Shown here piece after piece: positions 11,890-35,141 of a DNA stretch of 64,000 bases. The translations under genes were made by a program, and so were the position numbers. The DNA is taken from positions 52,093 through 116,092 of the forward strand of contig CAZROO010000001.1 of assembly GCA_964601735.1 (NCBI GenBank). The letters run 5' to 3'. Each line of letters begins with the position of its first letter. Positions within the stretch are counted from its first letter, which is position 1. Source of the DNA: an uncultured Pseudomonadales bacterium (GTDB taxonomy: Bacteria; Pseudomonadota; Alphaproteobacteria; UBA2136; UBA6156). Under the pieces are notes generated by a model that was not told the DNA's origin, searched no databases, and saw nothing but the letters and a program-made list of their open reading frames with translations.

Positions 11890-11961
11890 GGAATGGGCCC
11901 AAAAATGCAGCGCCTCCAAAAGCCGAAGAAAAACCGCCCTTCAAAAAGCACGGAGAACCTC

Positions 11962-12630
11962 ATGTCTTCTCAGTATGTAAGCACTTACAACGATTTTTAT
12001 CCTGTTGAGTATAAAAACAAATTTTACTTTAGTCTTGTTGGCCTCACCCTGCTGGGAAGCGGTTTTTTAGCTTCCGCGCATGCCGAAGTCCGAAAGTACG
12101 ACCCAGCCTCAAGTTCCAGTCAGATTACTCTTCCACGTGAAACAAGCCAGGTAGCGCAAAACCAAGCTCAAATCCAACCCCAGACCACTGCTTCGCCAAG
12201 TCTTTTACCGGGTGTGACAAGCAACACTGCTGACCCTTCGGCATATGTGGCGCAATTACAATTACTCAAACCCAAGGAGTACAAGCTGGGTACTGCCCGC
12301 ATCTTCATTAGTGCCGACGATCTGAGCCCTGAACTTATCGACCACCTGAAAGAGGTTCACGCCCTGCAAGATCTTCATTCCGAAATCTATTTCCAGAACA
12401 CCACCCCGGCCAACCTGACCACGCTGTTTACTGAGAAAATAAAGGATTATCCCAAAGGTATGGAGTTCAATATCGACTTCAACGGCCTGCTGGCAAATGA
12501 GCTACATGTGAAGGGGCAAAATGTGATTCTTTACACCGATGCCCAAGGCCGTACCGCTCAATATGATATAAAGAGTGAATATAGCTTTCGAGCGGCGATG
12601 GAAAGAATAAAACAAGGTGTTGCCCAATAA
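11962..12630 (+). CDS. periplasmic protein in the trbC/traW position (TrbC-like?)
   Basis: Signal/TM segment. The C-terminal half has the TrbC/TraW-like pattern (ARIFISADD...NVILYTD). Sits between traU and the traF-like gene, as trbC does in F. GGAGA precedes ATG 11962. Confidence 0.35.
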   Translation: MSSQYVSTYNDFYPVEYKNKFYFSLVGLTLLGSGFLASAHAEVRKYDPASSSSQITLPRETSQVAQNQAQIQPQTTASPSLLPGVTSNTADPSAYVAQLQLLKPKEYKLGTARIFISADDLSPELIDHLKEVHALQDLHSEIYFQNTTPANLTTLFTEKIKDYPKGMEFNIDFNGLLANELHVKGQNVILYTDAQGRTAQYDIKSEYSFRAAMERIKQGVAQ

Positions 12631-13732
12631 ACTATTAACAACGGTTCTGGCGTTAACGGCGTCGGGTTTTTTGTTGACCAACAATATTTACGCCGGTGTG
12701 TCCCAAAAGACAGATAATGGTGACACGGCCAACCCAGCCACCGCCTACCAGCCTTGCCTCGACTACTGGCAGGTGGGCATGGCCGGCAAATGCAATCCGC
12801 CCGTCAAACCGGCCCAAAAAGCCACCACAGCCGTAACGCCTACCATTGCTGTAGCTGTGCCCCCTGCCCCGGTCAGTCCCACCAAGTCGAAGGAAGACGA
12901 GGCCATCGACAAGTTTCAGGAGCAATACGGCAAGCCGCCGCGTGAATTTGTGGCGTTCTACCTTAATCCGACACCTGAAAATGCCACCAAGTGGGTGCAT
13001 ACTTACCAGGAAATGCTCAACCGCAACACGCAGTTGGCCATTGCCTGGACCCAGGCCGAAACACTCTACCAGAACGCCCTCAACAAAGGCGTGCCCGCCA
13101 GCAAGTTTGCCAGCAGCACCCTCGCCCCGGTGCCCGATTACGGCGTTCCGGTGCCTGGCTTTACCGATAATCCCTCCTTCTACCCCGGCAGAACGCCGCC
13201 AAGCACGCAGGTGCTGCAGGCGGGCGTACAAAGCCTGGGCGGCGGTAACCTGCCCAGTCCGGCAGCGCTTACCAACCCCGCCGCCATCACGGCGGGCCTG
13301 GTTACCAACCCGCAAACCCCCTCCACCCAAACCGGGCCCATCGAATTGCGCTACTATTTCAGCGCCGAGTGCCCCTACTGCCAGCGCTTCCAGCCGGGCT
13401 TTGCGGGCCTGTTGAAGGAAGAAGGCGCCAAACTCTCCACCATCTGCGTCGATGTCACCCCCTACTCCGGCCCCGGCACCGGGCCCGACCAGTCCCACGT
13501 CGCCGGCAAGCTCGACTGCGCCTGGCGTACCCTTGAGCCGGGCGAGGAAGACCAGATGGGCATCAAGGAAACGCCGACGCTCATTATCCGTCGCAAACCC
13601 AACGGGCCGTTCGAGCGGGTCAACGGCTACGTCGAAATCGACACGCTCAAGAGCTACCTCTTTAATACTCAGGCCGCCGCTGGCGCGCCGCAAATCACCG
13701 ACGCTCCCATCGGCGCGCCGTCAATGCAATAA
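12617..13732 (+). CDS. TraF/TrbB-like thioredoxin-fold protein
   Basis: Signal peptide. YYFSAECPYCQRFQP CxxC thioredoxin motif, with GIKETPTLII..GYVE tail like F TraF/TrbB. A Pro-rich linker is inserted. Confidence 0.6.
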   Translation: MLPNKLLTTVLALTASGFLLTNNIYAGVSQKTDNGDTANPATAYQPCLDYWQVGMAGKCNPPVKPAQKATTAVTPTIAVAVPPAPVSPTKSKEDEAIDKFQEQYGKPPREFVAFYLNPTPENATKWVHTYQEMLNRNTQLAIAWTQAETLYQNALNKGVPASKFASSTLAPVPDYGVPVPGFTDNPSFYPGRTPPSTQVLQAGVQSLGGGNLPSPAALTNPAAITAGLVTNPQTPSTQTGPIELRYYFSAECPYCQRFQPGFAGLLKEEGAKLSTICVDVTPYSGPGTGPDQSHVAGKLDCAWRTLEPGEEDQMGIKETPTLIIRRKPNGPFERVNGYVEIDTLKSYLFNTQAAAGAPQITDAPIGAPSMQ

Positions 13733-13764
13733 TGAAAAAGCCGTCCGGCCAGTAGAATAACCCC

Positions 13765-13793
13765 CTGTCAGTTTGCCATTTGTGCCCTATACT
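13765..13793 (+). promoter_or_regulatory. candidate promoter CTGTCA-N17-TATACT
   Basis: The CCCTGTCAGTTT box recurs at 43587 and CCCTGTCA at 36669; a -10-like TATACT sits 31 nt before the 13825 start. Confidence 0.3.
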
Positions 13794-13824
13794 ATAGACG
13801 GCTCAAGAAGAGCCCGAGAGAATA

Positions 13825-14154
13825 ATGGCCGATAACGCGACCCCTGCTAACCATCTGTCGGTAGAACACCGCAGCGAGACCGCGCGCCTGGCACGCGAGC
13901 GCCTGCTGTGGGCGGTGCGGCCGTTCGGCCTGATTGGCTTGGTGCTGTGGGTGCTGACTCCCGCGGTGGCGGCAGGCGGCAACCTTTCCGGCCGCACGCT
14001 CGAAGGGTTCCTGTTCGGTGCGGCCTACGGCTTGCTGATATATGGCGAACAACTTAAAAACTACCTGCGCTTCCGGCTCGAAGACGGTACCGACCATAAA
14101 AACCGCGTGCCGGATGAATTCTACTGGGGCGTTGTGGAAAAGAGGTTGCGTTAA
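13825..14154 (+). CDS. small two-TM membrane protein, possible detached membrane anchor of the coupling ATPase
   Basis: Two hydrophobic helices. Its stop overlaps the start of the next gene (TAATG at 14152-14156). Confidence 0.5.
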   Translation: MADNATPANHLSVEHRSETARLARERLLWAVRPFGLIGLVLWVLTPAVAAGGNLSGRTLEGFLFGAAYGLLIYGEQLKNYLRFRLEDGTDHKNRVPDEFYWGVVEKRLR

Positions 14155-15599
14155 TGACTATCGGCAGCGGTAACGAAGTGTTTCTCCCTAGCGGGCTGAT
14201 GACCCGCCACTGCTTGGCCGTGGCGGCCACCGGTGCGGGTAAATCCAACTTCCTTAACCTCATTCTCAAGCAGCAGATGATGCGCGGCGGCGGCGTCATC
14301 CACATCGACGGTAAAAACTCCGAAGAGGCCATCAGTCAGTTCCTCACGCTGGCCCGCCAGCACGACCGCTGGCAAGATGTGCGCATCATCAATATCGGCA
14401 ATTCCAAACTTTCCAATACTTACAACCCGTTGCTGCGTGGCGACAGCGAAGAGTTGGTCAACCGCGTCATGCTTCTGGTGGGCGGCGGTGGCAAGGGCGA
14501 CTTTTTCCGCAGCCAGGCGGGTAATGCCCTGCGCGCCATTGTGGCCATCCTGTGCCAGATGAAAATACCATTTAACTTCAATGACCTGCAAATGATCATG
14601 ACCGAGGAGGGCGCGTTGCGCCACATTATGCAGCAAGCCCCCAAGGACACGCGGGAATACGTCGACCTGCGCATGTTCATCGAGCAAATCAGCGAAGTCG
14701 ATAAACGCTCTGGCATCAAGCAAATCGACAACCGCAAGCGCCAGTTCGCGTTTGGCGACCTGCTGGGTAAAATCTCGTCCTACGGTAGCGGCGCCGAGGT
14801 GCGCGACGTACTCAATTCCTACAACCCGGAGGTCGACCTGCTTGAAGCCATGCGCGAAAACCAGCTGGTTTACGTCGGTCTGCCCACGCTGAACAAGACC
14901 GAGGCCGCCGTCGATTTCGCCAAAATCTTCCTCAACGACCTGATTACTGCCGTCGGCCAGCTGCAAAACGTCCCGAATGCCGACAAGCCCAGCCCGCCAT
15001 TCCTGGTGTTGATGGACGAATTCTCCAGCTATGCTATGGCCAGTCTCGATAAACTGTTCGAGCAGGCGCGTTCGGCCAACATCTGCCTGTTCCCGCTGGT
15101 GCAAACCATGAGTTCGCTGTCCGATCCCCAGCGCGGCCTGTCAGAAGACTTCAAGGACAAAATCCTGGGTAATACCTGGACCAAGGTCGTCTTCAAGCTC
15201 AACGACTCCACCAGCCGCGAGGAAATGAGCAAGCTGGCCGGTGAGGCGCTCAAGGAAATCAAGAGCGTCAGTTACGGCGAGAGCCTGAGCTTTGCCAGCG
15301 GCGTGGGTGCGGGCACCGAGGCCAGCAAGCTGCAAACCGGTGGTCGGGGCCGCAATACCAGCACCTCGGTCAGCATGCAGTACGACGCAGTGGTCCGGCC
15401 CGAGGAATTCGGCGATCTGGACCAGGGTGAGGGCATTTTGATTGGCCGGGAAGGGGTGTTTAAGCTCCGGGTGCCGGAAGTGATTTTAAAGAAGGATAAC
15501 GAAGGCCTGGACTTCCCAAAATTCCGCATGCCTGTCCGCCAGGGGCTCGATCTCGCCGGCAAGTACCACACTTTTAGCGGCGGCGGCCAAAAGGAGTAA
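14154..15599 (+). CDS. T4CP-like P-loop ATPase (TraD/VirD4/TrwB-type), lacking N-terminal TM segments
   Basis: Walker A AATGAGKSN, Walker B FLVLMDEFSSY, and later LVQTMSSL and NTWTKVVFKLND blocks in coupling-protein order. Confidence 0.6.
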   Translation: MTIGSGNEVFLPSGLMTRHCLAVAATGAGKSNFLNLILKQQMMRGGGVIHIDGKNSEEAISQFLTLARQHDRWQDVRIINIGNSKLSNTYNPLLRGDSEELVNRVMLLVGGGGKGDFFRSQAGNALRAIVAILCQMKIPFNFNDLQMIMTEEGALRHIMQQAPKDTREYVDLRMFIEQISEVDKRSGIKQIDNRKRQFAFGDLLGKISSYGSGAEVRDVLNSYNPEVDLLEAMRENQLVYVGLPTLNKTEAAVDFAKIFLNDLITAVGQLQNVPNADKPSPPFLVLMDEFSSYAMASLDKLFEQARSANICLFPLVQTMSSLSDPQRGLSEDFKDKILGNTWTKVVFKLNDSTSREEMSKLAGEALKEIKSVSYGESLSFASGVGAGTEASKLQTGGRGRNTSTSVSMQYDAVVRPEEFGDLDQGEGILIGREGVFKLRVPEVILKKDNEGLDFPKFRMPVRQGLDLAGKYHTFSGGGQKE

Positions 15600-19760: not shown

Positions 19761-21047
19761 ATGCGAGCCACCCCATTACGGTTATCTCTGGCGGTTATTG
19801 GCCACACCTCGCTTGCAGTAGTGGGCCTTGTCGCGCTTCCTTCTTACGCTGCGCCGGTGCCGGGCTACGTGCCGCCGGTCACCGAGGCCACCGCGCCAGT
19901 GTACGCTGACGATACCCGCGGCGTCTATGTTCCCGCCCATGAGCAATTGCGGATGAAGACCGAGCAGGAGCTTAACGCCTACAAGGCGGTCGATCAGGGT
20001 AACAAACCTTATTACGCGCAAAAGGCGCCGGGCGGCACTGGTTACGAGCGTGCCATGAACACGGTGGCCGACGGCGTGCCGGACGAAACCGCCGAGCTTG
20101 ACCGCATCGGCAATGACCCCGGCTTGCTCAGTGGCGGCGGCAGGCAAACCTCGCGCACGCCAACCGACGATGTCCTCGCGCAAAATAATATTTCTCCGTC
20201 GCCCGCGCCGCGCATCGCCGCTGCACCGTCGGCCGCGGGTACCGATTTAAGCCGCTACCCCTCCATCGCCACCGGCGGCGGTGCCGATATCGGCGCTGCC
20301 CGTACCACACCCCAGTTTTCATCAGGGCCGCGCAGTGACGGCGGCGAAGAAGTGGCCGTCGGCAGTCCCGGTGCCTCGGGTGCCACTACCGCCGGTACGT
20401 TGGACATGCAAAACAGCACGGTCAAACTTAAAGAAGAACGCGTGGCCGTGCGTCGCGTGCTCCAACGTATGATGGACCAGATTGGCGGCGGCAGCTGGAC
20501 AATCGTCTGGGACCTCGACGAGCAGAACGCGGGCCTGCCGGACATGGAAATCTCGATTTACGCCGAAGAGCCTTTCGTCAACGTGCTTAACGCCCTGCTG
20601 GCCCGCCTGCAAACCCGCAGCGGCACGCCGCTCCGCGTCATTAAGTACGACCGTACCCAACGCCTGGTCATCACCGACCGCATCGGTGGCGACGCCCGCC
20701 TGGGCGCGCCGTCGGGTGCCGGTGCCGGCAGCGGCGGCAAGGGCGGCAACGACCTCGCCGTGACCGAAAGCGTGCTCAAGGACAGCGTGGTAAGTCTTCA
20801 CTACGACGAAGTGCCGCTGGTCGATGCGCTTGAAAACATTATCAATCAGGCCGGCAAGGGCCAATGGCGTCTGCGCATGTACGCGGGCACCGACCAGGTA
20901 CTCAAGCCTGCACATATCGAAGAGCCTTTCGGCGTGGCGGTCGACCGCATCCTCAAGGTTTTCAACCTGCGTTACGAAATTTTCCCCGGCGGCAAGCTGA
21001 TTGTCGTCACCGGTGGCGACCGTTTCGGTTATCAAGGAGTCCAGTAG
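19761..21047 (+). CDS. PilL-like protein with two TcpQ-like domains
   Basis: Signal peptide, a Gly/Ala-rich linker, then two domains ending ..RVIKYDRTQRLVITD and ..EIFPGGKLIVVTG (TcpQ/PilL-type pattern). Lies directly upstream of the secretin, as pilL does in type IVb clusters. Confidence 0.55.
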   Translation: MRATPLRLSLAVIGHTSLAVVGLVALPSYAAPVPGYVPPVTEATAPVYADDTRGVYVPAHEQLRMKTEQELNAYKAVDQGNKPYYAQKAPGGTGYERAMNTVADGVPDETAELDRIGNDPGLLSGGGRQTSRTPTDDVLAQNNISPSPAPRIAAAPSAAGTDLSRYPSIATGGGADIGAARTTPQFSSGPRSDGGEEVAVGSPGASGATTAGTLDMQNSTVKLKEERVAVRRVLQRMMDQIGGGSWTIVWDLDEQNAGLPDMEISIYAEEPFVNVLNALLARLQTRSGTPLRVIKYDRTQRLVITDRIGGDARLGAPSGAGAGSGGKGGNDLAVTESVLKDSVVSLHYDEVPLVDALENIINQAGKGQWRLRMYAGTDQVLKPAHIEEPFGVAVDRILKVFNLRYEIFPGGKLIVVTGGDRFGYQGVQ

Positions 21048-21048
21048 A

Positions 21049-23109
21049 ATGTTCGGTGGGGGGAAAGTTACCCGGTTTTGTCTGCTTGCCCTCGGGCTTG
21101 TTTCTGCTGGTATCCTGAGTTCGTGCGGCAACGGCGTCAGCTTTGCCCAGCGCGAAAGCCCCGCCAACCAGTTCAAGGATTACCGCCCCGAAAACCGTAA
21201 CAACAGTGACGTGCTCGGCATCGGCGAGCCGATGTCGGCCAAGCAGGCCCGTGCCAACGCCACCTTCACCATGAAGGGCGAGTACGACCTCGAAGCGGTT
21301 ATGAACAAGGTCGCCGGCACCTACAACGTGGCAGTGCGTTGGGGTAACGGCGTGCGCAAAAACAGCCGTCACGACGTCCTCATCAACAGTCTGGCGTTCG
21401 ACGAAATGCGCAGCTACGTCGAAGACAACTTCAACGTCCAGATTATCCGCGAGGGCGCGCGCCGCCTGTTGGTTCTGCCTTCGGCCAGCGAGCCCCGCCT
21501 GACCAGCTTCAGCCCCGGCGACAACGTTACCCTCGGCGCTGCCCTCAAGGGCCTGGCGCAACAGTGCAGTTACAACCTTGTCATCAATGAGAACAAGGAA
21601 AAACTCTCCACCACCCACGTCAGCACGCACCTTAAAAACGTCACCTGCTTCGACGCATTCGAGGCCCTGCTCAACCCGCAAGGCCTTAGCCTGGTTTCGC
21701 AAGGTGATTACTACACCATCGGCGGCCTGCCGCAGCGTGAGTGGACGCTGAACCTGTACGAGCCCGAACGGACCGAAGAACTCACCGTCAACTATTCCTC
21801 CTCGTTCTCGGGTGGCGCGGGCGGTTCCTCCTCTTCAGGCGGCATCTCGAGCGGCAGCAGCGGTAGTAGCAGCGGCTCCACCAGCAACACTTCGGGCGGC
21901 AGCAACAACGTCTCCATCAAATACGATCGTAATCTGTGGACCGAACTCGAAGGCGACCTCAACCAGCTCCTGGCCAGTTCCTGTGAAGGCATGGGCGGCA
22001 CCGCTGGCGCCTCCTCCCCCGCCGCCACGCCCGCTGCTCCGTCTTCGGCTCCCGGCGCCACACCCAGCTTGTTGCCTCCTCCGGTGGTTAATGGCGCCAA
22101 CGGCAGCAGTACTGGCGGCGCCACCCCGGCGGCAGTACCCACTCCTCCCAGTCCCGTGGGCTTCCACCAGTCCAATCCTGCCGCCAGCGCTGCCGCGCCT
22201 TCCTGCGGGTACGTACGCATCAACCGTGCCGTGGGGCTGGTTCAAATGCGTGGCCCGCTGAATGCGCTTAACCAGGCCGACCAAATCATCCAGCGCGTGG
22301 CCGACATCGCCAGCCGCCGCCTGCTGCTGGAAGCCCGCGTCGTGGCCGTCACCCGCGACCGCAGCTACGATCAGGACGGCAAACTGCGCTTCGGCCGCCG
22401 CGGCAACGGTGCCACCACCAGCATAGGCAGCGGCAGCAGCATCACCTCCGCCATCAGCAATGAGCTTGCCAGCATCACTTCTTCCGCTGCGGGCGCCAGC
22501 ACCAATCTGTACGGCATCAGCGTGCAAAAGCTGAACCTCGACGCGGTCATGGGCATGCTTGAAAGCTATGGCACCACCTACGAGCTGATGCACCCCATCA
22601 TGGAGCTGATGGATCGCCAGCGTGCCACGCTGATTGATGGCCGCAACGAAAAATACTTCATTATCCAAAGTACCAGCACCACCGGCACGGCCACCACCAC
22701 GTCGGCCAGCGTCGATGAGCGCGACCAGTTTGTGGGCCTGCAGTTCTCGGCCAGCGCGCAAATCTCCGACGACCCCAACGAGCCGCACACCATCAGCCTG
22801 CAAATTCCGATTACTTCAATCGTGAAGACCGTCGATATTCCCAATCCCAACTACGACGGCACTAATGGTTCTCCTATCAGCGGCCAGGCGCCGGTGGCGT
22901 CCACCCGCCTGATCGACCAGAAGGTCCGCATTCGCGACGGTGAAATCAAGGTCATCGGCGGCCTCACCCGCACCCTGGCCACCGACAACGAAAGCGGCCT
23001 GCCGATCATCCGCCAAATCTCGGGCCTGGGTAAGCTGTTCAATACCGAAGGCATTACCTACGAACAGGTCGAGTTTGTAGTTTTGCTACAGGTCAAACGG
23101 TTAAGTTAG
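21049..23109 (+). CDS. type IVb pilus secretin lipoprotein (PilN/BfpB-like)
   Basis: Lipobox LSSCG. C-terminal secretin signature VIGGL..ESGLPIIRQISGLGKLF..VEFVVLLQV. AAGGAG precedes ATG 21049. A Ser/Gly/Pro-rich insert is present. Confidence 0.85.
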   Translation: MFGGGKVTRFCLLALGLVSAGILSSCGNGVSFAQRESPANQFKDYRPENRNNSDVLGIGEPMSAKQARANATFTMKGEYDLEAVMNKVAGTYNVAVRWGNGVRKNSRHDVLINSLAFDEMRSYVEDNFNVQIIREGARRLLVLPSASEPRLTSFSPGDNVTLGAALKGLAQQCSYNLVINENKEKLSTTHVSTHLKNVTCFDAFEALLNPQGLSLVSQGDYYTIGGLPQREWTLNLYEPERTEELTVNYSSSFSGGAGGSSSSGGISSGSSGSSSGSTSNTSGGSNNVSIKYDRNLWTELEGDLNQLLASSCEGMGGTAGASSPAATPAAPSSAPGATPSLLPPPVVNGANGSSTGGATPAAVPTPPSPVGFHQSNPAASAAAPSCGYVRINRAVGLVQMRGPLNALNQADQIIQRVADIASRRLLLEARVVAVTRDRSYDQDGKLRFGRRGNGATTSIGSGSSITSAISNELASITSSAAGASTNLYGISVQKLNLDAVMGMLESYGTTYELMHPIMELMDRQRATLIDGRNEKYFIIQSTSTTGTATTTSASVDERDQFVGLQFSASAQISDDPNEPHTISLQIPITSIVKTVDIPNPNYDGTNGSPISGQAPVASTRLIDQKVRIRDGEIKVIGGLTRTLATDNESGLPIIRQISGLGKLFNTEGITYEQVEFVVLLQVKRLS

Positions 23110-23188: not shown

Positions 23189-23845
23189 ATGAATCTTAAG
23201 CAAATGCTCAAGATGGTACGCTCCAGCAAGGGTTATACGCTGGATCAGACCATCCTGATTATTGCCATCATCGCCATCCTGGTCACGCTCATCATCCTGA
23301 CCGTGGGCTGGAGCCTCATCAACCGCGCCTCCGGTACCCGTCTGGCCAGCCAGCTGGGCAACGTGCAGGACGCGCTGGGCAACTACTACGGCGACGTCAA
23401 GCAATGGCCGCAAGGCACCGTCAGCAGCCCCACGCTGGATGCCGCTGCTTTGGCCGGCTTTAACGACAAAAACAGCAGCACCAAAAACTATATCGCTGGT
23501 CTGACGACCTCGGCGGCGGGTGTTACTCACAACCTCAACAGCCAAAGCAACCGTAATGTGCTGCTCAGCCAGGTGGCTGGCAGTGCAACGGCCTGGACCG
23601 GTCCCGCCGGCACCACCTACGAAGTGGTTGAGTTCCAGAATGTGGCTGGCAGCGACTTCACCAATGCCGACAACGCCATCGACAGTGGCGACGGTGGTAG
23701 CGCCGGTAGCGTGCGCGCTATCGCCGCAGCGGGTAGCGCTCCTGCCGCTGGTGCCGGTTGCTTTGCTGCGACCCCTACCTTCGTCAGCAGCACTGCCGCC
23801 AACACCTACTACGACATCTGCTATCGCGCCAACAACGTGCAGTAA
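23189..23845 (+). CDS. type IV (IVb-like) major pilin, paralog 1
   Basis: 15-aa leader ending KG, then YTLDQTILIIAIIAILVTLIIL, and a C-terminal Cys pair (GCF...DICY). A strong terminator follows. Confidence 0.75.
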   Translation: MNLKQMLKMVRSSKGYTLDQTILIIAIIAILVTLIILTVGWSLINRASGTRLASQLGNVQDALGNYYGDVKQWPQGTVSSPTLDAAALAGFNDKNSSTKNYIAGLTTSAAGVTHNLNSQSNRNVLLSQVAGSATAWTGPAGTTYEVVEFQNVAGSDFTNADNAIDSGDGGSAGSVRAIAAAGSAPAAGAGCFAATPTFVSSTAANTYYDICYRANNVQ

Positions 23846-24001: not shown

Positions 24002-24658
24002 ATGTACCGTCGCATCCTGAAAAAAAATCTTCTCGCCCAGCCGGGCTATACGCTCGACCAGACCATCCTGATCATCGCCATCATCGCCATCCTGATTACG
24101 CTCATTATCCTGACCGTGGGATGGAGTTTCATTAACCGTGCCTCCGGTACCCGCCTGGCCAATCAGTTGGGTGATATGAAGGATGCGGTCTCAGGCTATT
24201 TTGGCCAGCACAAACAATGGCCTGCGGGCATCGTCAGCAATCCCACCAACGACGCTGCCGCGCTGGCTGGTTATAACGATAAAAACGGCAACACCAAAAA
24301 TTACCTCGTCGGCCTGCTCAGCAGCGCCAGCGGCGTCACGCATAACCTCAATCTCATGCCCAACCGCAATGTGCTGCTCAGCCAGGTCAACGGCAGCGCC
24401 AGTAACTGGCCGGGGCCGACTGGCAGTGTCTACGAGGTCGTGGAATTCCAGAATATTTCAGGCAGCGATTTCACCGCCGCCGATGCCGTCATCGACACGG
24501 GCGACGGCGGTGCTCAGGGCAAAATCAGGGTCATCGCGGCGGCGGGCAGTGCTCCGGCGGCGGGGGGTGGTTGTTTTGCTTCGTCCCCCAGCTTTGTCAG
24601 CAGCACCACCGACAATAGCTATTACGACGTCTGCTACGCTTCCAACAACGCGCAGTAA
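24002..24658 (+). CDS. type IV (IVb-like) major pilin, paralog 2
   Basis: Leader ending PG, then YTLDQTILIIAIIAILITLIIL. Colinear with paralog 1 and the same length, 218 aa. Confidence 0.75.
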   Translation: MYRRILKKNLLAQPGYTLDQTILIIAIIAILITLIILTVGWSFINRASGTRLANQLGDMKDAVSGYFGQHKQWPAGIVSNPTNDAAALAGYNDKNGNTKNYLVGLLSSASGVTHNLNLMPNRNVLLSQVNGSASNWPGPTGSVYEVVEFQNISGSDFTAADAVIDTGDGGAQGKIRVIAAAGSAPAAGGGCFASSPSFVSSTTDNSYYDVCYASNNAQ

Positions 24659-24771
24659 CCCGTCGCGCAAGTGAGGCAGGCGGGCCACCCTCCGCCACGT
24701 ATCTCCATCCGTCGGGGTGCGGCTCCGCCTTTTTGACGGTAGGCTGGGGCAACAGCAAAAATATAGTAAGA

Positions 24772-26601
24772 ATGGCCACCGACCCGAACACCTTCATCGC
24801 CACGCCCCAGGAGAGCCTGACGCCGGTGTGGGAAGTCGAGCCCGATATCAAGGCGGCCGACGCCACTGGTACCGCGGGCTCGGCCGAAACCCCGGTAAAC
24901 GAGGGCGATACCTACCGGCGTGCCCTCAACATTATTCTCAACGCCACCGATCTCCAGCTCGATAATCTGGCGCGGAGCGAAATCCAGGCCGCCCTCGCCA
25001 GCGGGCGCCCGGCCCAGTTGCTGTGCCGCGAGTTGCTCGATAAAAAGCTGCTTCTTCCCCAAATCCTGGGCCGTGCACTGGCTCGTGCCAACCATGCCAG
25101 CGAAATCATGACGTTTACCGAAATTCCCAGCGGTGCCGGCCAGTTGCGCGACGAACTGCCGCCCCGGGTCACCGCCATGCTGCGGGCCGAGCGCATGATT
25201 CCGCTGGTTGTCAAAAAAAACGAGAATAACGAAATCGCCGAATTGCATGTCGCGGCCGAAACCCTGGGCCGCGACCTGGTGCTGGAAAACCAGTTGCGTG
25301 ACATGCTCAACCCCGGCGCCAGAATCGTCTGGCATTTCGGCCTGCGCGAGGTCGCCGGTGCGTACTGGCTGTCGGGCGCCACCGCCGATGTCGATACCGG
25401 TATGGAGGCCGAGGCCCTGCTCGAGCGTATCCTGTCCACCGCCATCGACGCCCGCGCCTCCGATATCCACATCGACCCCTCTATCAAGGGCGAGCCGCGC
25501 GCGCTCATCAAGTACCGCATCGACGGTTTCGTGCACCCGAAAGAAATGGTCACCCTCGACCAGCTTGATCGCCTGCGGGTGCGCATCGAAAACGTCGCGC
25601 GCATGCCCAAGGTCAACCTCAATCACCCCAACAAGGGCGCCTTTAGCCGTGTCGGTTACGACTGGCGTGTGCAAATGCAGCCGCACGCGGGCCGCCAGGG
25701 GCCGGTGCCGCGCATCGTCATCCGCCGCCTCAAGCCCGAGGTGCTGCCGCTCGAGGCGCTGGGCTATCCTCCCGATTTCGTCGAAAAAATCATTCAGGCT
25801 GCAGCCGCACCCAACGGCGTCATCTTCTGGACCGGCCCCACCGGCTCGGGCAAAACCGAATCCATTCACGCCGCACTGGTGTCCGCCAACCCGATGGCTC
25901 GGGGCCTCAGCGTCCATACCATCGAAGACCCGCCGGAAAAACGCGTGCCTGGTTACGCCGTGCAAATGGAAGTGGCCGAGGAAGACCCCGCCCGCACCGC
26001 ACTGCAATTGCTCAAGTCCTCGCTGCGGGCCGACCCCGACGTGGTGATTTTCGGTGAAGTCCGTGATGCCGAAATGGCCAAGCTGGTGTTCGAGGCCGCC
26101 AATACCGGGCACTTGGTGTTCACCACGCTGCACACTAACACCGCTCTCGATAGCATTTTCCGCCTGGTCGAACTCAAGGTAAACGGCTTCCTGCTCAGTT
26201 ACGTGCGTGGCATCGCGGCGCAGCGGCTGGTGCGGCGCCTGTGCACGCACTGCCGCATCCGCCAGGAGCCGATGGACGATTTTGCCCGCTATATTTTCGA
26301 TCGCTATCAACTACCGTCCGAAGGCGCCGACGTCTACAACGCCAATCCGGATGGTTGCCTCAACTGCAATTTCACCGGCTACTATGGACGTATCGCGGTG
26401 GCCGAATGGCTGCAACCTACCAAGGAAATCATCGAGGCTACGGTGGCGGGCCAGTATGACCAGCTCGAAGACATGGCCCGCCGTGCCGGCTGGCAGCCGA
26501 TGGGCCGCATGGGCGCGCAGCACATGGCCGCGGGCATCACCGATGCCGCCGAACTTTCCAGTAAAATTCTCGAACTCGCGGCTGCCGCGCTGGTGAAATA
26601 A
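24772..26601 (+). CDS. GspE/PilB-family pilus assembly ATPase (PilQ of IncI nomenclature)
   Basis: Walker A GPTGSGKT, Asp box, Walker B VVIFGEVRD, His box FTTLHTN, and tetracysteine CTHC...CLNC. Confidence 0.9.
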   Translation: MATDPNTFIATPQESLTPVWEVEPDIKAADATGTAGSAETPVNEGDTYRRALNIILNATDLQLDNLARSEIQAALASGRPAQLLCRELLDKKLLLPQILGRALARANHASEIMTFTEIPSGAGQLRDELPPRVTAMLRAERMIPLVVKKNENNEIAELHVAAETLGRDLVLENQLRDMLNPGARIVWHFGLREVAGAYWLSGATADVDTGMEAEALLERILSTAIDARASDIHIDPSIKGEPRALIKYRIDGFVHPKEMVTLDQLDRLRVRIENVARMPKVNLNHPNKGAFSRVGYDWRVQMQPHAGRQGPVPRIVIRRLKPEVLPLEALGYPPDFVEKIIQAAAAPNGVIFWTGPTGSGKTESIHAALVSANPMARGLSVHTIEDPPEKRVPGYAVQMEVAEEDPARTALQLLKSSLRADPDVVIFGEVRDAEMAKLVFEAANTGHLVFTTLHTNTALDSIFRLVELKVNGFLLSYVRGIAAQRLVRRLCTHCRIRQEPMDDFARYIFDRYQLPSEGADVYNANPDGCLNCNFTGYYGRIAVAEWLQPTKEIIEATVAGQYDQLEDMARRAGWQPMGRMGAQHMAAGITDAAELSSKILELAAAALVK

Positions 26602-27686
26602 TGGGTCTGCAAATTGGCCGTACTAAACTGTCAACGCCCGACCGCATCGATTTTTTCAAAACTATGGCGGGCTGGCTCGAGGCTGGCGCGGGCCGCACCA
26701 GCGTGGCCGAGGCCGTGCGCAACACCTGCGAAGCCTTCAGCCACGATGAATACCTCAGCCTCAAACCGGCCATGGACAACATCATCAATCAGGTCGAAGA
26801 AGCCCAGACCATGCTGTACGTAACGCTGATGGAGTCACGCCTGGGGTTCGAGGCGCAGGAGCTCGCCATCATCGAAGCCGCCGAGCGCACTAACCAACTG
26901 CGCAAGGCCGTACCTTCGCTGGTACGCGCCATGGAGGTTCAATACAAGGGCCGCCGCTCGCTGCTGGCCAAGCTGGCCGGGCCGCTGGCCATCGGCTTCC
27001 TGCTTATCCTCATGTCGCTGGGGGTTCTCATTTTCATGCTGCCGCTGGTGGTGGGCCCGGTCATCCAGCGTAACGACAAAGCCCTGGCCCACTTTCCCAT
27101 GATTTTGCGTGGTTACTGGTACACCTCGGTCTGGCTGCGGGCGCATCCGTGGGTGCCAGTGGTCGTGGTTTTGTTTCCCATTGTTTTCTTTTTCCTCCGC
27201 AATACGCCGCTCATCCGGCCCGGCTTCCAAAAGTTCCTGATGACCTGGCATCTCAGCCGCCGTCTGATCCTTGGCTTCAATTCCATGCTGGTGGTGTACT
27301 TCATGCCTGCGCTCATCCGTTCGGGGCTGCCCAGCTACCGGGTGCTGTACAACCTGGCCGACTGTATTCGCAATCCCATCCTCGCGGGCCAGTTCCGCCT
27401 CGCGGGGCAAGACCACGAAGCCGGCATGCGCTTGTCCGATTCCCTCGGGGCCATCCCGTTCAAGGCATCTTTCATCAACGCGGTCAACGCGGGCGAGGCC
27501 ACCGGCGCGGTGGCCGATCGGGTACAGGATCTGCAGGAACCCTATACGCTTGACCTTGAACGCAATATCCAACGCATCGTGGCTATCTTAAAAGGGCTGG
27601 TGATGGCCGTGCTGCTGCCGTTCTTCATCGTCTCAACCTACACCGCGCTGGTGGGGCCTATTTTTGCCCTCATGGAGTACCACTAA
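26601..27686 (+). CDS. GspF/PilC-family inner-membrane platform protein
   Basis: About 360 aa, duplicated GspF-like halves with three TM regions; start overlaps the ATPase stop (TAATG). Confidence 0.8.
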   Translation: MGLQIGRTKLSTPDRIDFFKTMAGWLEAGAGRTSVAEAVRNTCEAFSHDEYLSLKPAMDNIINQVEEAQTMLYVTLMESRLGFEAQELAIIEAAERTNQLRKAVPSLVRAMEVQYKGRRSLLAKLAGPLAIGFLLILMSLGVLIFMLPLVVGPVIQRNDKALAHFPMILRGYWYTSVWLRAHPWVPVVVVLFPIVFFFLRNTPLIRPGFQKFLMTWHLSRRLILGFNSMLVVYFMPALIRSGLPSYRVLYNLADCIRNPILAGQFRLAGQDHEAGMRLSDSLGAIPFKASFINAVNAGEATGAVADRVQDLQEPYTLDLERNIQRIVAILKGLVMAVLLPFFIVSTYTALVGPIFALMEYH

Positions 27687-30146: not shown

Positions 30147-32054
30147 ATGCAAGCTTTTTATTTCTTTGCGATATTCGGCCTGCTTTCCTCCATTATTGGC
30201 GGCATTATTGCGGTGTCCAACCTTACCACGCAAAGGCTGCGGGTCATGCTGCTCAACGAGGCGCACGAGCAGTTCCGCAGTGCCAACGTCATGCTCAACG
30301 GCCAGTATATCCCCAATTACCTGCAAAGCCCGCCTATTCCGGGTGCGGGCACCAGCACCCCGGCAGGCCCGTACGTCTGCGGCATCGAGGATATCCGCCA
30401 GATTCTCAACTGCAGCAGCGGCGTGCCCAAAGATCCCTGGAACCACGACATCACCGGCGTGGTGGTGCGCCAGATGCAGGCCATCGCCACCAAAACCAAC
30501 CTGGTATTCAACGTGCCTGTCACCGGCTACGCGCTGCTGTCGGCGGGGCCCGATGGCATCATCCAAAGCACGCTGCCCAGCAATCCCACCACTATTGCCC
30601 AGCTGACGGCCCTCACGCCCTCGGGCGATGACATCCTCGAAGTCTTTACCGACCAGAAAGGCCAGCAGGACAACGTCGGTCGCGTCGAGGGTGCCCTGAC
30701 CCGCATCGGCCAGGCCGCCATTCAGAATTATCAAAGGCAATTTGCCCTCATCGTCAAACCGAGCCTCGCCAGCATCTACGCCGCCGCGAATTTTGCCGAT
30801 ATCACCACACCCGCCGCCCAGAACTACTGGAAAACCTATGTGACCCAAACCTCCGGCACTCAAGTCGTCAACCTCACCTCGGGGTCGAACTGGACGGTGC
30901 CCTTGAACTGGCCCAACGATAACAACAAAATCGAAACGCTCGGTGGCGGCGGTGCCGGCGGCTACGGCGCGTATTTTGCGAGCGGCGGCGGCGGCGGCGC
31001 TTATTCGTCCAGCAATAACGTGGTGCTGACACCCGGTGCCACGGTCGCCTACCAGGTCGGCGCAGGCGGGGCGGCGCTGGCCTCAAGCCCCGGTGGCGCT
31101 GGTGGTGATACCTGGTTTAACGGCACCAGCCTGTCAAACGCCTTGGTCAGTGCCCAGGGTGGCGCTGGAGGCCAAATAAATCCCAGTGTTGTACCCCCCG
31201 CTTCTTCGGGCGGCCAAGCCATGTATGGCCGGGGTACTGGCGTTCGTACGTCCGGGGGGACCGGCGGTGTGGGTGCCTATGGCGGTGGTGGCGGCGGCGG
31301 GGCGGCCGGTCCGCTTGGCAATGGCGGCAACGGCGGCAGTTACGCCGGTGGCTCGAGCAACGGCGGCGGTGGCGGCGGTGGCGGCAACGGCGGTAGTAAT
31401 GGCGCCAACGATGCCCTTAATGCCTGCGCCGGTGGTAATGGCGGCAACGGCGGGCTCACCGGCACCGGGGGCGGCCTTAGCAGCGCCACCGTATGTAATG
31501 CGGGCACCAACGGCGGCGGTGGCTCCGGTGGGTGGGGAGGAGCTTGCCCCGGCGGTAACGGTGGTATGGATAATTACTATGGTGGCACCATCGGTTTTGG
31601 CGGCGGTGGTGGTGGCGGCGGGTATAACCCCTGCACCGCCAGCCCTGTTGCTAATGGGTCTGGCCGCTATGGCGGGGCGGGTAACTTCGGTGCTGGCGGC
31701 GGCGGTGGCGCCCCTAACACAAGCGGCGGCGCTGGCGGGCAAGGGTTTATCCGCATCACCTATACGCCGCAGGGTGACCGCGTGACGTTTAAAAAACTGC
31801 TCAACCCGAGCAACACGCTCAATACCTACGCCATCGGTGACGACGGCGACGTTGCCACTATCCAGCGCACGCTCGGTGACGGTAGCAATCTCACCCTCAT
31901 GGGCAGTGTCAGCGATTCCGATCCCACCAACAACGGCGTCAACGACATCCTCTTCCTGACCATCAGCACCACCACGACGCCGTGGCAACAGGTCACGCCC
32001 AATTGTACGGTCAATACGCCAATTAACTGTATGAAGGTGAAGGGAACCATATAA
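30147..32054 (+). CDS. pilin-like N-domain fused to a long glycine-rich domain (candidate tip/adhesin protein)
   Basis: Hydrophobic N-terminus. The SAGPDG motif also occurs in the PilV-like neighbour (SGGPDG). About 270 residues of GGxGG-type repeats. Confidence 0.5.
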   Translation: MQAFYFFAIFGLLSSIIGGIIAVSNLTTQRLRVMLLNEAHEQFRSANVMLNGQYIPNYLQSPPIPGAGTSTPAGPYVCGIEDIRQILNCSSGVPKDPWNHDITGVVVRQMQAIATKTNLVFNVPVTGYALLSAGPDGIIQSTLPSNPTTIAQLTALTPSGDDILEVFTDQKGQQDNVGRVEGALTRIGQAAIQNYQRQFALIVKPSLASIYAAANFADITTPAAQNYWKTYVTQTSGTQVVNLTSGSNWTVPLNWPNDNNKIETLGGGGAGGYGAYFASGGGGGAYSSSNNVVLTPGATVAYQVGAGGAALASSPGGAGGDTWFNGTSLSNALVSAQGGAGGQINPSVVPPASSGGQAMYGRGTGVRTSGGTGGVGAYGGGGGGGAAGPLGNGGNGGSYAGGSSNGGGGGGGGNGGSNGANDALNACAGGNGGNGGLTGTGGGLSSATVCNAGTNGGGGSGGWGGACPGGNGGMDNYYGGTIGFGGGGGGGGYNPCTASPVANGSGRYGGAGNFGAGGGGGAPNTSGGAGGQGFIRITYTPQGDRVTFKKLLNPSNTLNTYAIGDDGDVATIQRTLGDGSNLTLMGSVSDSDPTNNGVNDILFLTISTTTTPWQQVTPNCTVNTPINCMKVKGTI

Positions 32055-33217
32055 TGATACCCACCATGCGCCATGTTTTATCGCCCCTCCGCAAGGCCGA
32101 CGGTTTCTCAATGGCCGAAATCATGCTCTCGGTCGCGGTGCTGGCCATCCTGGTGTCGATCACCGCGCCGCCGCTCATCACCTTCATGCGCCAAAAGGAT
32201 GTCCGCGAGGAGCAAAGCCAGCAAATCCAAATCCGTGACGGCATGGCCGCGATGCTTGCCGCCACCGACAGCCTGCCGCTCGACACGGCCACCGGCAACA
32301 GCGCCTGGTATAACGTGCTGGCGCCCTACACCAACCTGTCGCCGTACCAAATCCAGTTCGACCAGTGGAACAAACCGCGCGCCTATATCATGATGGTCAA
32401 CAACCAAAACCTGCTGGGCAGCCCGGTCTCCATCACCTACGTTACACTGAGCAGCGGCGGGCCCGACGGCAAGGCTTCGCAAATCACCGATAAGAACGGC
32501 AACGTCATCGTTCCGGTCAGCGGCAACGCATTTGCGGCGGCTTCCGACAGCCACTGGTGGAAGTTCAACTCCACCAGTGCCCTCGCGGCCTTCGGTTCAG
32601 TGGGTATCTCCAGCACCACCACCACCGACGATATCATGCTCCGCTTCACCAACTACCCGGATAAAATCGCTGCCTACAACAACACGCTTGAGCGTCTCGG
32701 CAAGGTTACCGAAGCGCTCGAATCCTACAACCGCACCGCCTACGCCAACCGCGTCGTCGCCTGCAACAGCAACCCGTCGCCGACCGACTGCGTTACCAGT
32801 CCGCCGGATACCCAAATCAATTACCCGATGGGCTACGGCGTAACCACGGGCGACAGTTCGTCTCTCTATAACGCCACGGTCATTTCCGATACCACTACCA
32901 TCACCGGCGGTACGGGGTATATCTATAACGGCACCGGCAGTGCGACCAACGATACCGCCCGTCGCACCGCCATGATCAACCTCATGCGCTTGCTCGGTCT
33001 GCCGGACAGCTATTGCTGCAGCGCCATCGACCACTTCACCGATAGCAGCGGTGCCTGGCAGGAAACCCCGTTCTTCTATGCCAGCAATCCGCGGGCCCGT
33101 GCTACTATCTCTACCTGCGGCAACCGTTATAACGGCACTTCCGCCACCATTCCGCTGCCGGCCCGGCTGACCACCTACTACACGGCCGACGGCAATAACG
33201 GCGCCAGCTGCTTCTAA
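32054..33217 (+). CDS. minor pilin, PilV-like
   Basis: Canonical class III signal ..KADG/FSMAEIMLSVAVLAILV with E5; large variable C-domain with a Cys pair. Confidence 0.7.
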   Translation: MIPTMRHVLSPLRKADGFSMAEIMLSVAVLAILVSITAPPLITFMRQKDVREEQSQQIQIRDGMAAMLAATDSLPLDTATGNSAWYNVLAPYTNLSPYQIQFDQWNKPRAYIMMVNNQNLLGSPVSITYVTLSSGGPDGKASQITDKNGNVIVPVSGNAFAAASDSHWWKFNSTSALAAFGSVGISSTTTTDDIMLRFTNYPDKIAAYNNTLERLGKVTEALESYNRTAYANRVVACNSNPSPTDCVTSPPDTQINYPMGYGVTTGDSSSLYNATVISDTTTITGGTGYIYNGTGSATNDTARRTAMINLMRLLGLPDSYCCSAIDHFTDSSGAWQETPFFYASNPRARATISTCGNRYNGTSATIPLPARLTTYYTADGNNGASCF

Positions 33218-33219
33218 AA

Positions 33220-33549
33220 ATGGCCGAAGCCCTCTGGTACGTCACGGCCTTCCATCCGTGGCTGTGGCTGGTGCTCGGCGGCGTGCTGGGCGCGGTGCTG
33301 GGGTCGTTCTTCACCTGCGCCGCCTACCGCGTGCCGCGCGGCATCAGCCTGCGCAAGCCGGTGTTCAGTTTCTGCCCGTGCTGTAACCACCGCCTGACCG
33401 TCCCCGACCTCATTCCCATCGGCAGCTGGCTGGCGTTGCGGGGCCGGTGTCGCCATTGCGGCGGGGCCATTCCGCTGCGCAGCCTGGGGCTCGAAATCGC
33501 CGCCACCGCCGCAGGCGTGGGCCTGACGTGGTTGCTCCTGCATTTATGA
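33220..33549 (+). CDS. prepilin peptidase N-terminal (Zn/di-Cys) domain only; A24 protease domain absent
   Basis: GSFFTCAAYRVPRG...CPCCNHRL...IPIGSWLALRGRCRHCGG..IPLR matches the PilD N-terminal domain. The ORF stops at 109 aa, and only 74 nt remain before the next gene. Confidence 0.75.
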   Translation: MAEALWYVTAFHPWLWLVLGGVLGAVLGSFFTCAAYRVPRGISLRKPVFSFCPCCNHRLTVPDLIPIGSWLALRGRCRHCGGAIPLRSLGLEIAATAAGVGLTWLLLHL

Positions 33550-33623
33550 CACACCGCATCCCCCGCTGACATGGCGCAGCTTGGGTTTTCTCATCAAAAA
33601 GGGCAAAATCCGGCAGGAGAAAA

Positions 33624-35141
33624 ATGCCGATGCATAGCCGTATCTTGGGGTTAGCGATTTTACTGAGCACCACCACGCTGGTGCACGTCGCTGTCGCTCA
33701 AACGGTAACCGATACCCCCTCCAGCCCCCGCCCGGCAGACGACATCATCACCCCCGGCCAGGTGCTGCTCCACCGCACCGAGGCCGCACTGTCGCCGCAA
33801 ACCCAAACCAGTTGGGAAGACAAGCTCAAGCAAAGCCTGGCCGACGCCCAAGCCCTCTTCAAACAACAGTCCTCGGCGCAACTCAACCAGATGCGCGACG
33901 AAAACGCTCGCCTGCAACAGCAGCTCACCGCTCAACAGTTGCTGATGGCCGAAAGCGCCCGCGCCCGCGACGAAGCCACCCAGGCCAAACTGGCCGCCAG
34001 CGAAACCAGGTTCGACGCCCTGGCGCAAACCACCAACACCAAGCTCGAGGGCATGGCCCAGATCGCCGAAACCCAGAACAAGCTGAACCAGGTGCAACTG
34101 GCGGCGCTGGCGGGCGAGTTCGACAACAAGCTGCATTATTACGCCACCGAGCAACTGGCCCAGGCCCGGCGTGACACCGACGCCGCGCTGCAAAAGGTCG
34201 CCAAGGGCGCACGCATCGACGTGCTTGAGCTGCAAAAGCAAACCGCTGCCAAGCTGGCCGAAATCCGCGACGCCGCCAATCAAAAGGCCGAGGCGATGGC
34301 CGATGCCCGCGCCGCCGCGGTCGAAAAGAAACTCGCCGACGCGCTTGAGCAGAAAACCTCGCCTGAACAGGCCAAGCAACTGGCGCGCGAGCAACTGGCC
34401 GACGCCGCGCCTGAAATGCGCGCGCTGGCGTTGCAAACGCTGTCCGACTCGCAGGATTATATCAAAACCGTGGCCAAGGATGCCGTTAAGGATAACGACC
34501 CCGCAGTGCAGGAAGCCTTGCAGAATGCGGCCAAAAACGTCATCGCCAAGGATAACAAGGTTGTCTTCGCCATGCGCCAGGCTATGGCCCGGCAAATCGC
34601 CGACGAGGCTGCCGGCAAGCCCATCGAGGGTGTTGATGCGACAGGTACGGCGGGCAGCACGCTGGCCGATGCCCACGGTGAAACCCCGGCCATTCCGCTC
34701 GGCAATGCGTTGGGCGACGATGTGCAAATCGACCCCGCCAGCTTGCAAATCACCGCGCCGCAGGCGGGTGCCTCAGCCACGGTGCCGCAAATCCTGGCCT
34801 CGCTGGGCGGGCACAAAACCTCGTTGCTGCCCGCGCGCAGCCGCCGCGACTGGGTCGACCTCCGCAAGTACAAGGTGGTGGTCCACGAAGACGGTAAAAC
34901 GCTCGAAGAGCTGATGAACGAGGTCATGACCCGCGCCGAGCCCTTTACCGGCCCGTGGAAAATCAAATGGAAAATCAGCGACGAGAACAAGGATATCCTC
35001 AGCACCAAGTTCAGCCTCGATACCGAAACCAGCTTCGACGAGTTCGTCAGCTACCTGGCACAGTACCTGGTTAACGACCGCGGCGTGAAAATCACTTTCA
35101 GCCTGTTCGACCGCGACCGCGTGATAGTGATTAGCGACTGA
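33624..35141 (+). CDS. secreted long coiled-coil protein with C-terminal TcpQ-like domain
   Basis: Signal peptide, about 300 aa of Ala/Gln/Lys coiled coil, and a C-terminus ..WKIKWKIS...ITFSLFDRDRVIVISD. Confidence 0.5.
   Translation: MPMHSRILGLAILLSTTTLVHVAVAQTVTDTPSSPRPADDIITPGQVLLHRTEAALSPQTQTSWEDKLKQSLADAQALFKQQSSAQLNQMRDENARLQQQLTAQQLLMAESARARDEATQAKLAASETRFDALAQTTNTKLEGMAQIAETQNKLNQVQLAALAGEFDNKLHYYATEQLAQARRDTDAALQKVAKGARIDVLELQKQTAAKLAEIRDAANQKAEAMADARAAAVEKKLADALEQKTSPEQAKQLAREQLADAAPEMRALALQTLSDSQDYIKTVAKDAVKDNDPAVQEALQNAAKNVIAKDNKVVFAMRQAMARQIADEAAGKPIEGVDATGTAGSTLADAHGETPAIPLGNALGDDVQIDPASLQITAPQAGASATVPQILASLGGHKTSLLPARSRRDWVDLRKYKVVVHEDGKTLEELMNEVMTRAEPFTGPWKIKWKISDENKDILSTKFSLDTETSFDEFVSYLAQYLVNDRGVKITFSLFDRDRVIVISD

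Follow-up and report, generated by a model that had tools for sequence, protein, structure and literature searches.

The question raised by this locus is how the prepilins of a type IV pilus cluster are matured when the prepilin peptidase gene among them ends before its protease domain. The initial annotation of the window, by which we mean the whole 64,000-nucleotide stretch of DNA analyzed here, drew attention to a 109-aa plus-strand ORF (33220-33549) with the motifs CAAYRVPRG, CPCCNHRL and LRGRCRHCGG, all of which are present in the sequence. At least three proteins with class III signal peptides were said to be encoded at the locus, and ORFs 23189, 24002 and 32054 do carry such signals. 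Either a peptidase encoded elsewhere would process them, or the stand-alone domain would have been kept for another role, such as docking or methylation. The window belongs to an assembly of 1.2 Mb in 27 contigs that is 89% complete and has a GC content of 59.7%.

The ORF was assigned by Pfam profile search to PF06750 (A24_N_bact) with 81.9 bits against a gathering cut-off of 23 (E=3.5e-23). Residues 22-104 align to profile positions 1-82 of 84, so the end of the ORF is the end of the domain, and the claim that it stops where the A24 domain should begin is borne out. In a six-frame search this was the single PF06750 match in the whole genome. The corresponding InterPro entry, IPR010627, is named the methylase domain in two reviews, one of them a 2023 review of type 4 filaments (PMC10191384, PMC4471445). 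A minus-strand ORF that mirrors the gene (33214-33543) has no family support and was dismissed as the usual shadow of high-GC coding sequence.

PF01478, the peptidase domain, did not match the ORF, which lacks the D...GxGD motif of the A24A peptidases. When all six frames of the 1.2-Mb assembly were searched, no PF01478 domain appeared on the window's contig, which confirms that the catalytic Asp part is absent from the locus; the only two matches in the genome lie on other contigs, C4 and C8. The initial annotation had asked whether an A24 domain might lie in another frame immediately downstream. It does not, as judged by the six-frame search and by tblastn of the flanks of nine other stand-alone loci, and a frameshift or assembly artefact hiding the domain was rejected. 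The distance to the next gene is 74 nt, as claimed, from the stop codon (33547-33549) to the next ATG (33624), and neither a promoter-like nor a terminator-like site was found in this gap. The context is nonetheless that of the A24A family: genes for a secretin, two pilins, T2SSE, T2SSF and a minor pilin precede the ORF on the same strand. GC content is 0.53-0.63 in 4-kb blocks of the window and ~0.62 around the ORF, close to the genome average, so the locus has no foreign signature.

Table 1. Features of the pilus locus, of the stand-alone A24_N protein and of the related genes discussed in the text. Positions are those of the window unless a contig or locus is named.
Feature	Position	Strand	Evidence
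Secretin of the pilus module	21001..23109	+	PF00263, E=1.3e-17
Major pilin paralogue A, class III signal SSKG|YTLDQT	23189..23845	+	
Major pilin paralogue B, class III signal AQPG|YTLDQT	24002..24658	+	
T2SSE-family assembly ATPase	24733..26601	+	PF00437, E=2e-70
T2SSF-family platform protein	26601..27686	+	PF00482, E=2.8e-20
PilV-like minor pilin, 387 aa, class III signal G17|F18...E22	32054..33217	+	PF07963, TIGR02532
Stand-alone A24_N protein (IPR010627, prepilin peptidase "methylase domain"), 109 aa	33220..33549	+	PF06750 match
TM helix 1, residues 14-40, with invariant G24, G28-S29-F30 and R37 and lineage-specific invariant C33	33259..33339	+	AF2 helix H14-40
Cytoplasmic C4 zinc ribbon, residues 41-85	33340..33474	+	sequence
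Cys codons of CxxC-X21-CxxC: C52, C55, C77, C80	33373, 33382, 33448, 33457	+	
TM helix 2, residues 86-108, with invariant membrane-embedded E92	33475..33543	+	AF2 helix H86-108
Spacer before the next gene, 74 nt, without A24 remnant, promoter or terminator	33550..33623	.	
orf505, secreted coiled-coil protein, conserved right neighbor of A24_N	33624..35141	+	synteny
Type a A24-only peptidase, 183 aa	window's genome (G000), contig C4 2740-3291		PF01478, D44 + GMGD108
Type b A24-only peptidase	window's genome (G000), contig C8		LDL..LPD + GGGDFK
Duplicated PilV-like minor pilins	L042 10249-12526 (G001); L036 7743-9815 (G017)		

The structure of the protein was predicted with AlphaFold2 (AF2) from an alignment of 30 homologues, giving a mean pLDDT of 93 and a pTM of 0.76. 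The model consists of a short N-terminal helix, two long helices and a non-helical ribbon between them, which is the IPR010627 topology of two TM helices around one large loop. Basic residues after the first helix (R37, R40, R45, K46) are consistent with a cytoplasmic loop. In PilD of P. aeruginosa, C72, C75, C97 and C100 bind zinc in a CXXC-X21-CXXC arrangement, and the zinc is required for N-methylation and dispensable for cleavage (PMC3584216); a Gly and a basic residue beside the third Cys are also needed for methylation, according to the account of Pepe & Lory 1998 given there. The ORF has the four cysteines, likewise with 21 residues between the pairs, and G75-R76 directly precede the third. 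A PDB sequence search with the ORF gave no match, and a Foldseek search with its model gave no significant match and no solved relative. The ORF is the complete methylase module of PilD-type enzymes and nothing more.

Homologues were sought among database proteins of 60-190 aa, and 30 stand-alone forms were found at 43-99% identity. On the long contigs that carry them the gene order is that of the window: secretin, ATPase, platform protein, four unnamed genes, N_methyl pilin and A24_N (111-120 aa), then two ~500-aa proteins, a TrbC-like protein and further genes as far as SLT and a UvrD-like helicase. The survey of the window's order covered 29 species genomes, all of 0.9-1.9 Mb. Exactly one significant PF06750 match was present in 27/29 genomes and in 14/14 high-quality genomes, always in a short stop-to-stop frame (116-192 aa) encoding a protein of 109-165 aa. 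In the other two genomes the locus contig ends before the expected position, so the A24_N gene is present in every informative genome of the order (27/27). Using tblastn with 20 window proteins, we found A24_N flanked by the PilV-like pilin and orf505 in ten genomes, which cover families f1-f5 of the six in the order. From the sixth, f6 (G021), the short A24_N gene alone was retrieved, on a 3-kb locus, and two genomes from other families of the class have the same synteny.

The residues that define the PilD N-domain are retained. All 28 order sequences keep G24, G28-S29-F30, R37, S50, the four cysteines and E92. G75 is found in 26/28 (93%) of them. Among the 30 database homologues G75 does not vary, and nearly all keep the four cysteines, one protein being without the third. 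Across the sequences, position 76 is almost always R or K. The 28 stand-alone proteins were compared with 29 N-domains that are fused to an intact GxGD protease, and nearly every position conserved at ≥75% in the fused set was also conserved in the stand-alone set. Two places differ: the LNV stretch after GSF, where V is replaced by C33, and the R-Y pair before TM2; this RY motif is partly lost in family f1. C33 (codon 33316-33318) is an extra cysteine three residues after GSF that is invariant in 28/28 locus-type proteins, and its position is mostly Val in fused PilD N-domains.

Selection was estimated as Nei-Gojobori dN/dS over a 90-codon core in within-genus pairs. Most pairs gave 0.07-0.18, and the unsaturated pair G019/G026 (dS 0.16) gave 0.16. 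Looser values were obtained for the window's genus pair (0.55) and for G003/G008 (0.40). The window copy is the most divergent in its family, with an unusual CPCC motif and a 1-residue insertion, a point that we count against a methylase function. The stand-alone A24_N gene is under purifying selection. The initial annotation had described a peptidase reduced to its N-terminal domain and had asked whether homologous loci carry the same short form. The domain-only form stands, and the gene is conserved in related loci, always short and in the same position in 27/27 informative genomes and in the two further families, as expected if the domain has been retained. The recent local truncation implied by "reduced" does not stand, as the domain-only form is an old, lineage-wide gene architecture.

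The A24_N proteins are 109-130 aa long in family f1 and 133-165 aa in f2-f6, where they have one or two extra C-terminal TM helices. The longer proteins look like stages of a stepwise shortening, as would be expected of a decaying remnant (pseudogene) of the locus peptidase; an assembly or frameshift artefact could also give a short ORF. We find this explanation scarcely credible. It is effectively excluded by frames that are intact in 27/27 informative genomes of six families and in two more families, by a dN/dS well below 1, by the conservation of the functional residues, by a fold predicted with high confidence, and by the absence of PF01478 from this contig. The 74-nt gap is also too small to hold a domain of 100-plus residues. 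When full-length PilDs were compared by tblastn with the 20-kb flanks of nine other stand-alone loci, only N-domain matches were obtained, except for a weak upstream peptidase-domain fragment at L085 (E=0.003). No PF01478 signal was detected by Pfam search in the 133-165-aa homologues even at E≤10, and a relic of the first catalytic Asp in these proteins was therefore rejected. Because PF01478 is absent from the ORF, from its contig and from the longer homologues, ORF 33220-33549 should not be annotated as a peptidase. Annotation pipelines label such genes "leader peptidase/N-methyltransferase", yet peptidase activity is impossible.

A peptidase encoded elsewhere, as the initial annotation proposed, was found by searching the genome. 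Almost all genomes of the order contain two ORFs with PF01478 only; these are of two sequence types (a and b) and never lie beside the A24_N gene. In the window's genome these are the matches on contigs C4 and C8, neither of them on the window's contig. Both types have PF01478 without PF06750 and both Asp motifs, type a keeping D44 and G-x-G-D108. NCBIfam has no model that matches either of them or the A24_N ORF. Type a modeled alone gave a pLDDT of 93.8 and a pTM of 0.87 with AF2, and a Foldseek search with this model returned nothing significant, FlaK (3s0x) ranking 13th with E=2.7. Type a lies directly upstream of a PolyA_pol/CCA-type gene in 9/10 genomes checked; it is an orphan gene at a fixed housekeeping site. 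Type b is the last gene of a second type-IV-filament cluster. The genes of this second cluster (locus L108, ~34164-42806 of contig C8) encode a T2SSE ATPase that has an MshEN domain, T2SSF, a GspG-like pseudopilin and type b; others are unnamed. Type b is followed by a DnaJ-domain protein whose N-terminal region is rich in Cys.

A maximum-likelihood tree of A24 domains divides with 100/100 support into two clades: types a and b fall together with the fused PilDs, apart from the short CpaA/TadV-like peptidases of other Alphaproteobacteria. Type a groups with alphaproteobacterial fused PilDs (86/86). Its relatives outside its own lineage mostly have PF06750+PF01478, with a few short PF01478-only proteins among the nearest, and the outgroup genomes of the class (G029, G030, G031, G040) have PF06750 and PF01478 in one frame. 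The order has a PilD-clade protease without an N-domain and an N-domain without a protease. PilD-clade protease-only enzymes also occur in genomes without any A24_N (e.g. G039), so the peptidase does not need an A24_N partner.

How the two genes came about can be approached from the lengths of the A24_N proteins and from their tree. The lengths suggest that an enzyme encoded at the locus, once full-length, was progressively shortened from its C-terminus. They are unlike the outcome of a clean fission, because the halves of a fission would start out adjacent. Reciprocal domain loss in two paralogues would be the most economical scenario: the paralogue of the pilus locus would have kept only the methylase module, and the chromosomal pilD orthologue only the protease. 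In the N-domain tree the 28 locus-type proteins form one clade (99/91). Five other stand-alone forms are scattered among the fused enzymes, so the methylase-only architecture arose several times. These five come from small alphaproteobacterial genomes (1.9-2.4 Mb), in unrelated gene contexts, and protease-only genes are also present. Two further orphan examples were found on metagenome contigs. A search of genome contigs with the single protein gave, among the matches listed, mostly the N-termini of full-length PilDs from unrelated phyla.

In a survey of 297 high-quality genomes of the class, all stand-alone PF06750 matches were in genomes of ≤2.4 Mb; in larger genomes PF06750 was fused or absent. 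A different arrangement was seen in actinobacterial-looking high-GC proteins of 243-300 aa (P0063, P0075, P0078, P0094, P0105, P0109, P0113, P0134, P0169 and P0172), which have an intact A24_N and a polytopic C-part without GxGD. This is another way to keep the N-domain without an active protease.

The gene stands at the junction of the pilus genes with coiled-coil, TrbC-like, TraE-like and other T4SS genes, and it is always followed by two large coiled-coil proteins. Such a position would suit an A24_N that had been re-used by the conjugation-type T4SS, for example as a membrane zinc-ribbon anchor, and that no longer acts on type IV pilins. We consider this improbable. The signature residues of the PilD N-domain are retained, apart from the exceptions near GSF and in the R-Y pair. 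This T4SS locus is absent from the genomes and contexts in which the other independent stand-alone forms are found. Within the locus, the gene is coupled to the pilin upstream and separated by the 74-nt gap from the gene downstream.

F-like conjugation genes lie on both sides of the pilus module and in among its genes (10705-15599 and 36771-56824). They encode TraU, TraF/thioredoxin-like, T4CP, TrbC-like pilin, TraE/VirB8-like, TrbI-like and TraC/TraG P-loop ATPase proteins; no relaxase was seen among the window ORFs scanned. No close relative of the A24_N protein was found on 72,556 plasmids, the best matches having 35-48% identity over part of the domain and all being full-length A24 peptidases. 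The locus is therefore not a known plasmid module, since its plasmid matches are distant full-length peptidases only. A 107-aa GIY-YIG nuclease ORF (39456-39779, plus strand; PF01541, E=1.5e-5) lies between the conserved orf257 and the SLT gene. The 36-40 kb stretch around it has a lower GC content (0.565) and relatives have a variable gap here; the ORF is probably a small mobile insertion.

The minor pilin upstream of A24_N has the leader ADG|FSMAE, in which E22 is at position +5, and passes the TIGR02532 cut-off. Its G17|F18 and E22 form the canonical cleavage/methylation motif. In the window A24_N starts 2 nt after the stop of this gene. In two other genomes (G001, G017) the minor pilin gene, single in the window, is tandem-duplicated, and the stop of the second copy overlaps the A24_N start. 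The leaders of these duplicated pilins are G|FTLAE, G|FSMPE, G|FTIVE and G|FSIID. A24_N is apparently translationally coupled to the minor-pilin gene. The two major pilins are in tandem and have an unusual mature start, Y-T-L-D-Q (Tyr+1, Asp+4, Gln+5). They are not classical NMePhe substrates because they start with Tyr and have no Glu5, which also counts against a methylase function.

The explanation that we prefer, with about an even chance of being correct, is that the ORF is a functional, autonomous PilD methylase module, acting as an N-methylase or pilin-docking subunit alongside a peptidase from another gene. The two PilD activities would then be divided between genes in this order of Alphaproteobacteria. 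Class III leaders would be cut by the protease-only A24 enzymes (types a and b), and the stand-alone N-domain would then act on the pilins, most likely N-methylating the new pilin N-terminus with SAM in a zinc-dependent manner. It may work alone or docked to type a as a two-subunit PilD. Type a is the most plausible partner, because type b belongs to its own cluster. We infer the methyltransferase activity, the substrates and the partner of the A24_N protein. Further points count against methylation: the A24_N and type a genes are never adjacent, no experiment shows that IPR010627 is catalytic by itself, a SAM-binding fold is not recognizable in the domain, and the peptidase does not need an A24_N partner.

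The main alternative, which we think rather unlikely, is a non-catalytic pilin-handling subunit. The zinc-ribbon hairpin would recognize or hold prepilins, especially the G|FxxxE minor pilins encoded upstream, without methyl transfer; it would hand them on to a peptidase or the assembly platform, or act as a regulator of the peptidase. A structural or substrate-recognition role was suggested for the zinc site of PilD (PMC3584216, discussion), and catalysis by IPR010627 "remains to be formally demonstrated" (PMC4471445). The module is also small, with ~45 cytoplasmic residues and no recognizable SAM-binding fold. Its tight coupling to the minor-pilin gene would fit pilin handling, and the several independent stand-alone origins, together with the A24_N proteins that have degenerate C-domains, suggest a role separable from proteolysis. 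Against this, the most strictly conserved features are those tied to methylation, the four cysteines and the Gly-plus-basic pair, and pure docking would not obviously need all of them.

The arrangement has parallels in known systems. The placement of the prepilin peptidase gene PilU of R64 (IncI1), beside the minor-pilin/adhesin gene in a type IVb thin-pilus cluster that serves conjugation, may be analogous to the A24_N gene order, but R64 PilU is an active peptidase, unlike ORF 33220-33549. Protease-only prepilin peptidases (TadV, FppA, CpaA, FlaK) are also well known. The ORF shares with the bifunctional prepilin leader peptidase/N-methyltransferases PilD (XcpA) and PulO/GspO/OutO the same N-module, a TM1, a cytoplasmic CxxC-X21-CxxC zinc site and a TM2 (PMC3584216, PMC10191384), as well as the GSF, YRxP, SxCPxC, DL/N-x-P, G-(K/R)-C-x-x-C and TM2 Glu signatures. 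Where the PilD polypeptide continues into the polytopic A24 protease (D...GxGD), that part is here absent from gene and locus and is found on separate genes. Types a and b have the architecture of TadV/CpaA/FppA and of the archaeal FlaK/PibD, which are proteases without a methylase domain and so show the PilD modules uncoupled in nature (PMC10191384, PMC3244431), but they belong to the PilD clade and not to CpaA/TadV, and the ORF is the reciprocal, methylase-only form. The platform protein TadB/TadC, which fission has divided between two genes (PMC10191384), is a precedent in type IV filament machineries for a two-module ancestral protein present as two genes. TadB and TadC are adjacent paralogous halves, whereas the modules here are unrelated in sequence, unlinked in the genome and probably derived from different paralogues.

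In searches of the literature on PF06750/IPR010627, on truncated or split prepilin peptidases and on pilin N-methyltransferases, we found no account of a stand-alone methylase-only form. We put at somewhat below even the chance that this is the first natural stand-alone pilin N-methyltransferase, with reciprocal domain loss in two paralogues, two-subunit or sequential maturation, and repeated independent origin. To our knowledge, in all studied systems the methylase domain is fused to an essential protease, and for this reason the two PilD activities are hard to separate genetically. An autonomous 109-aa module that is predicted to fold alone, together with natural protease-only partners, could be a minimal test system. 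It opens the questions of whether the domain is sufficient for SAM-dependent methylation, whether docking on the protease is needed, and what methylation contributes to pilus assembly. Conserved across an order of small-genome Alphaproteobacteria, it could serve as a natural test of the methylase half alone. If the functions are indeed divided in this way, the repeated origin of the stand-alone form in small-genome Alphaproteobacteria would mean that N-methylation, or whatever role the N-domain has, is selected in its own right.
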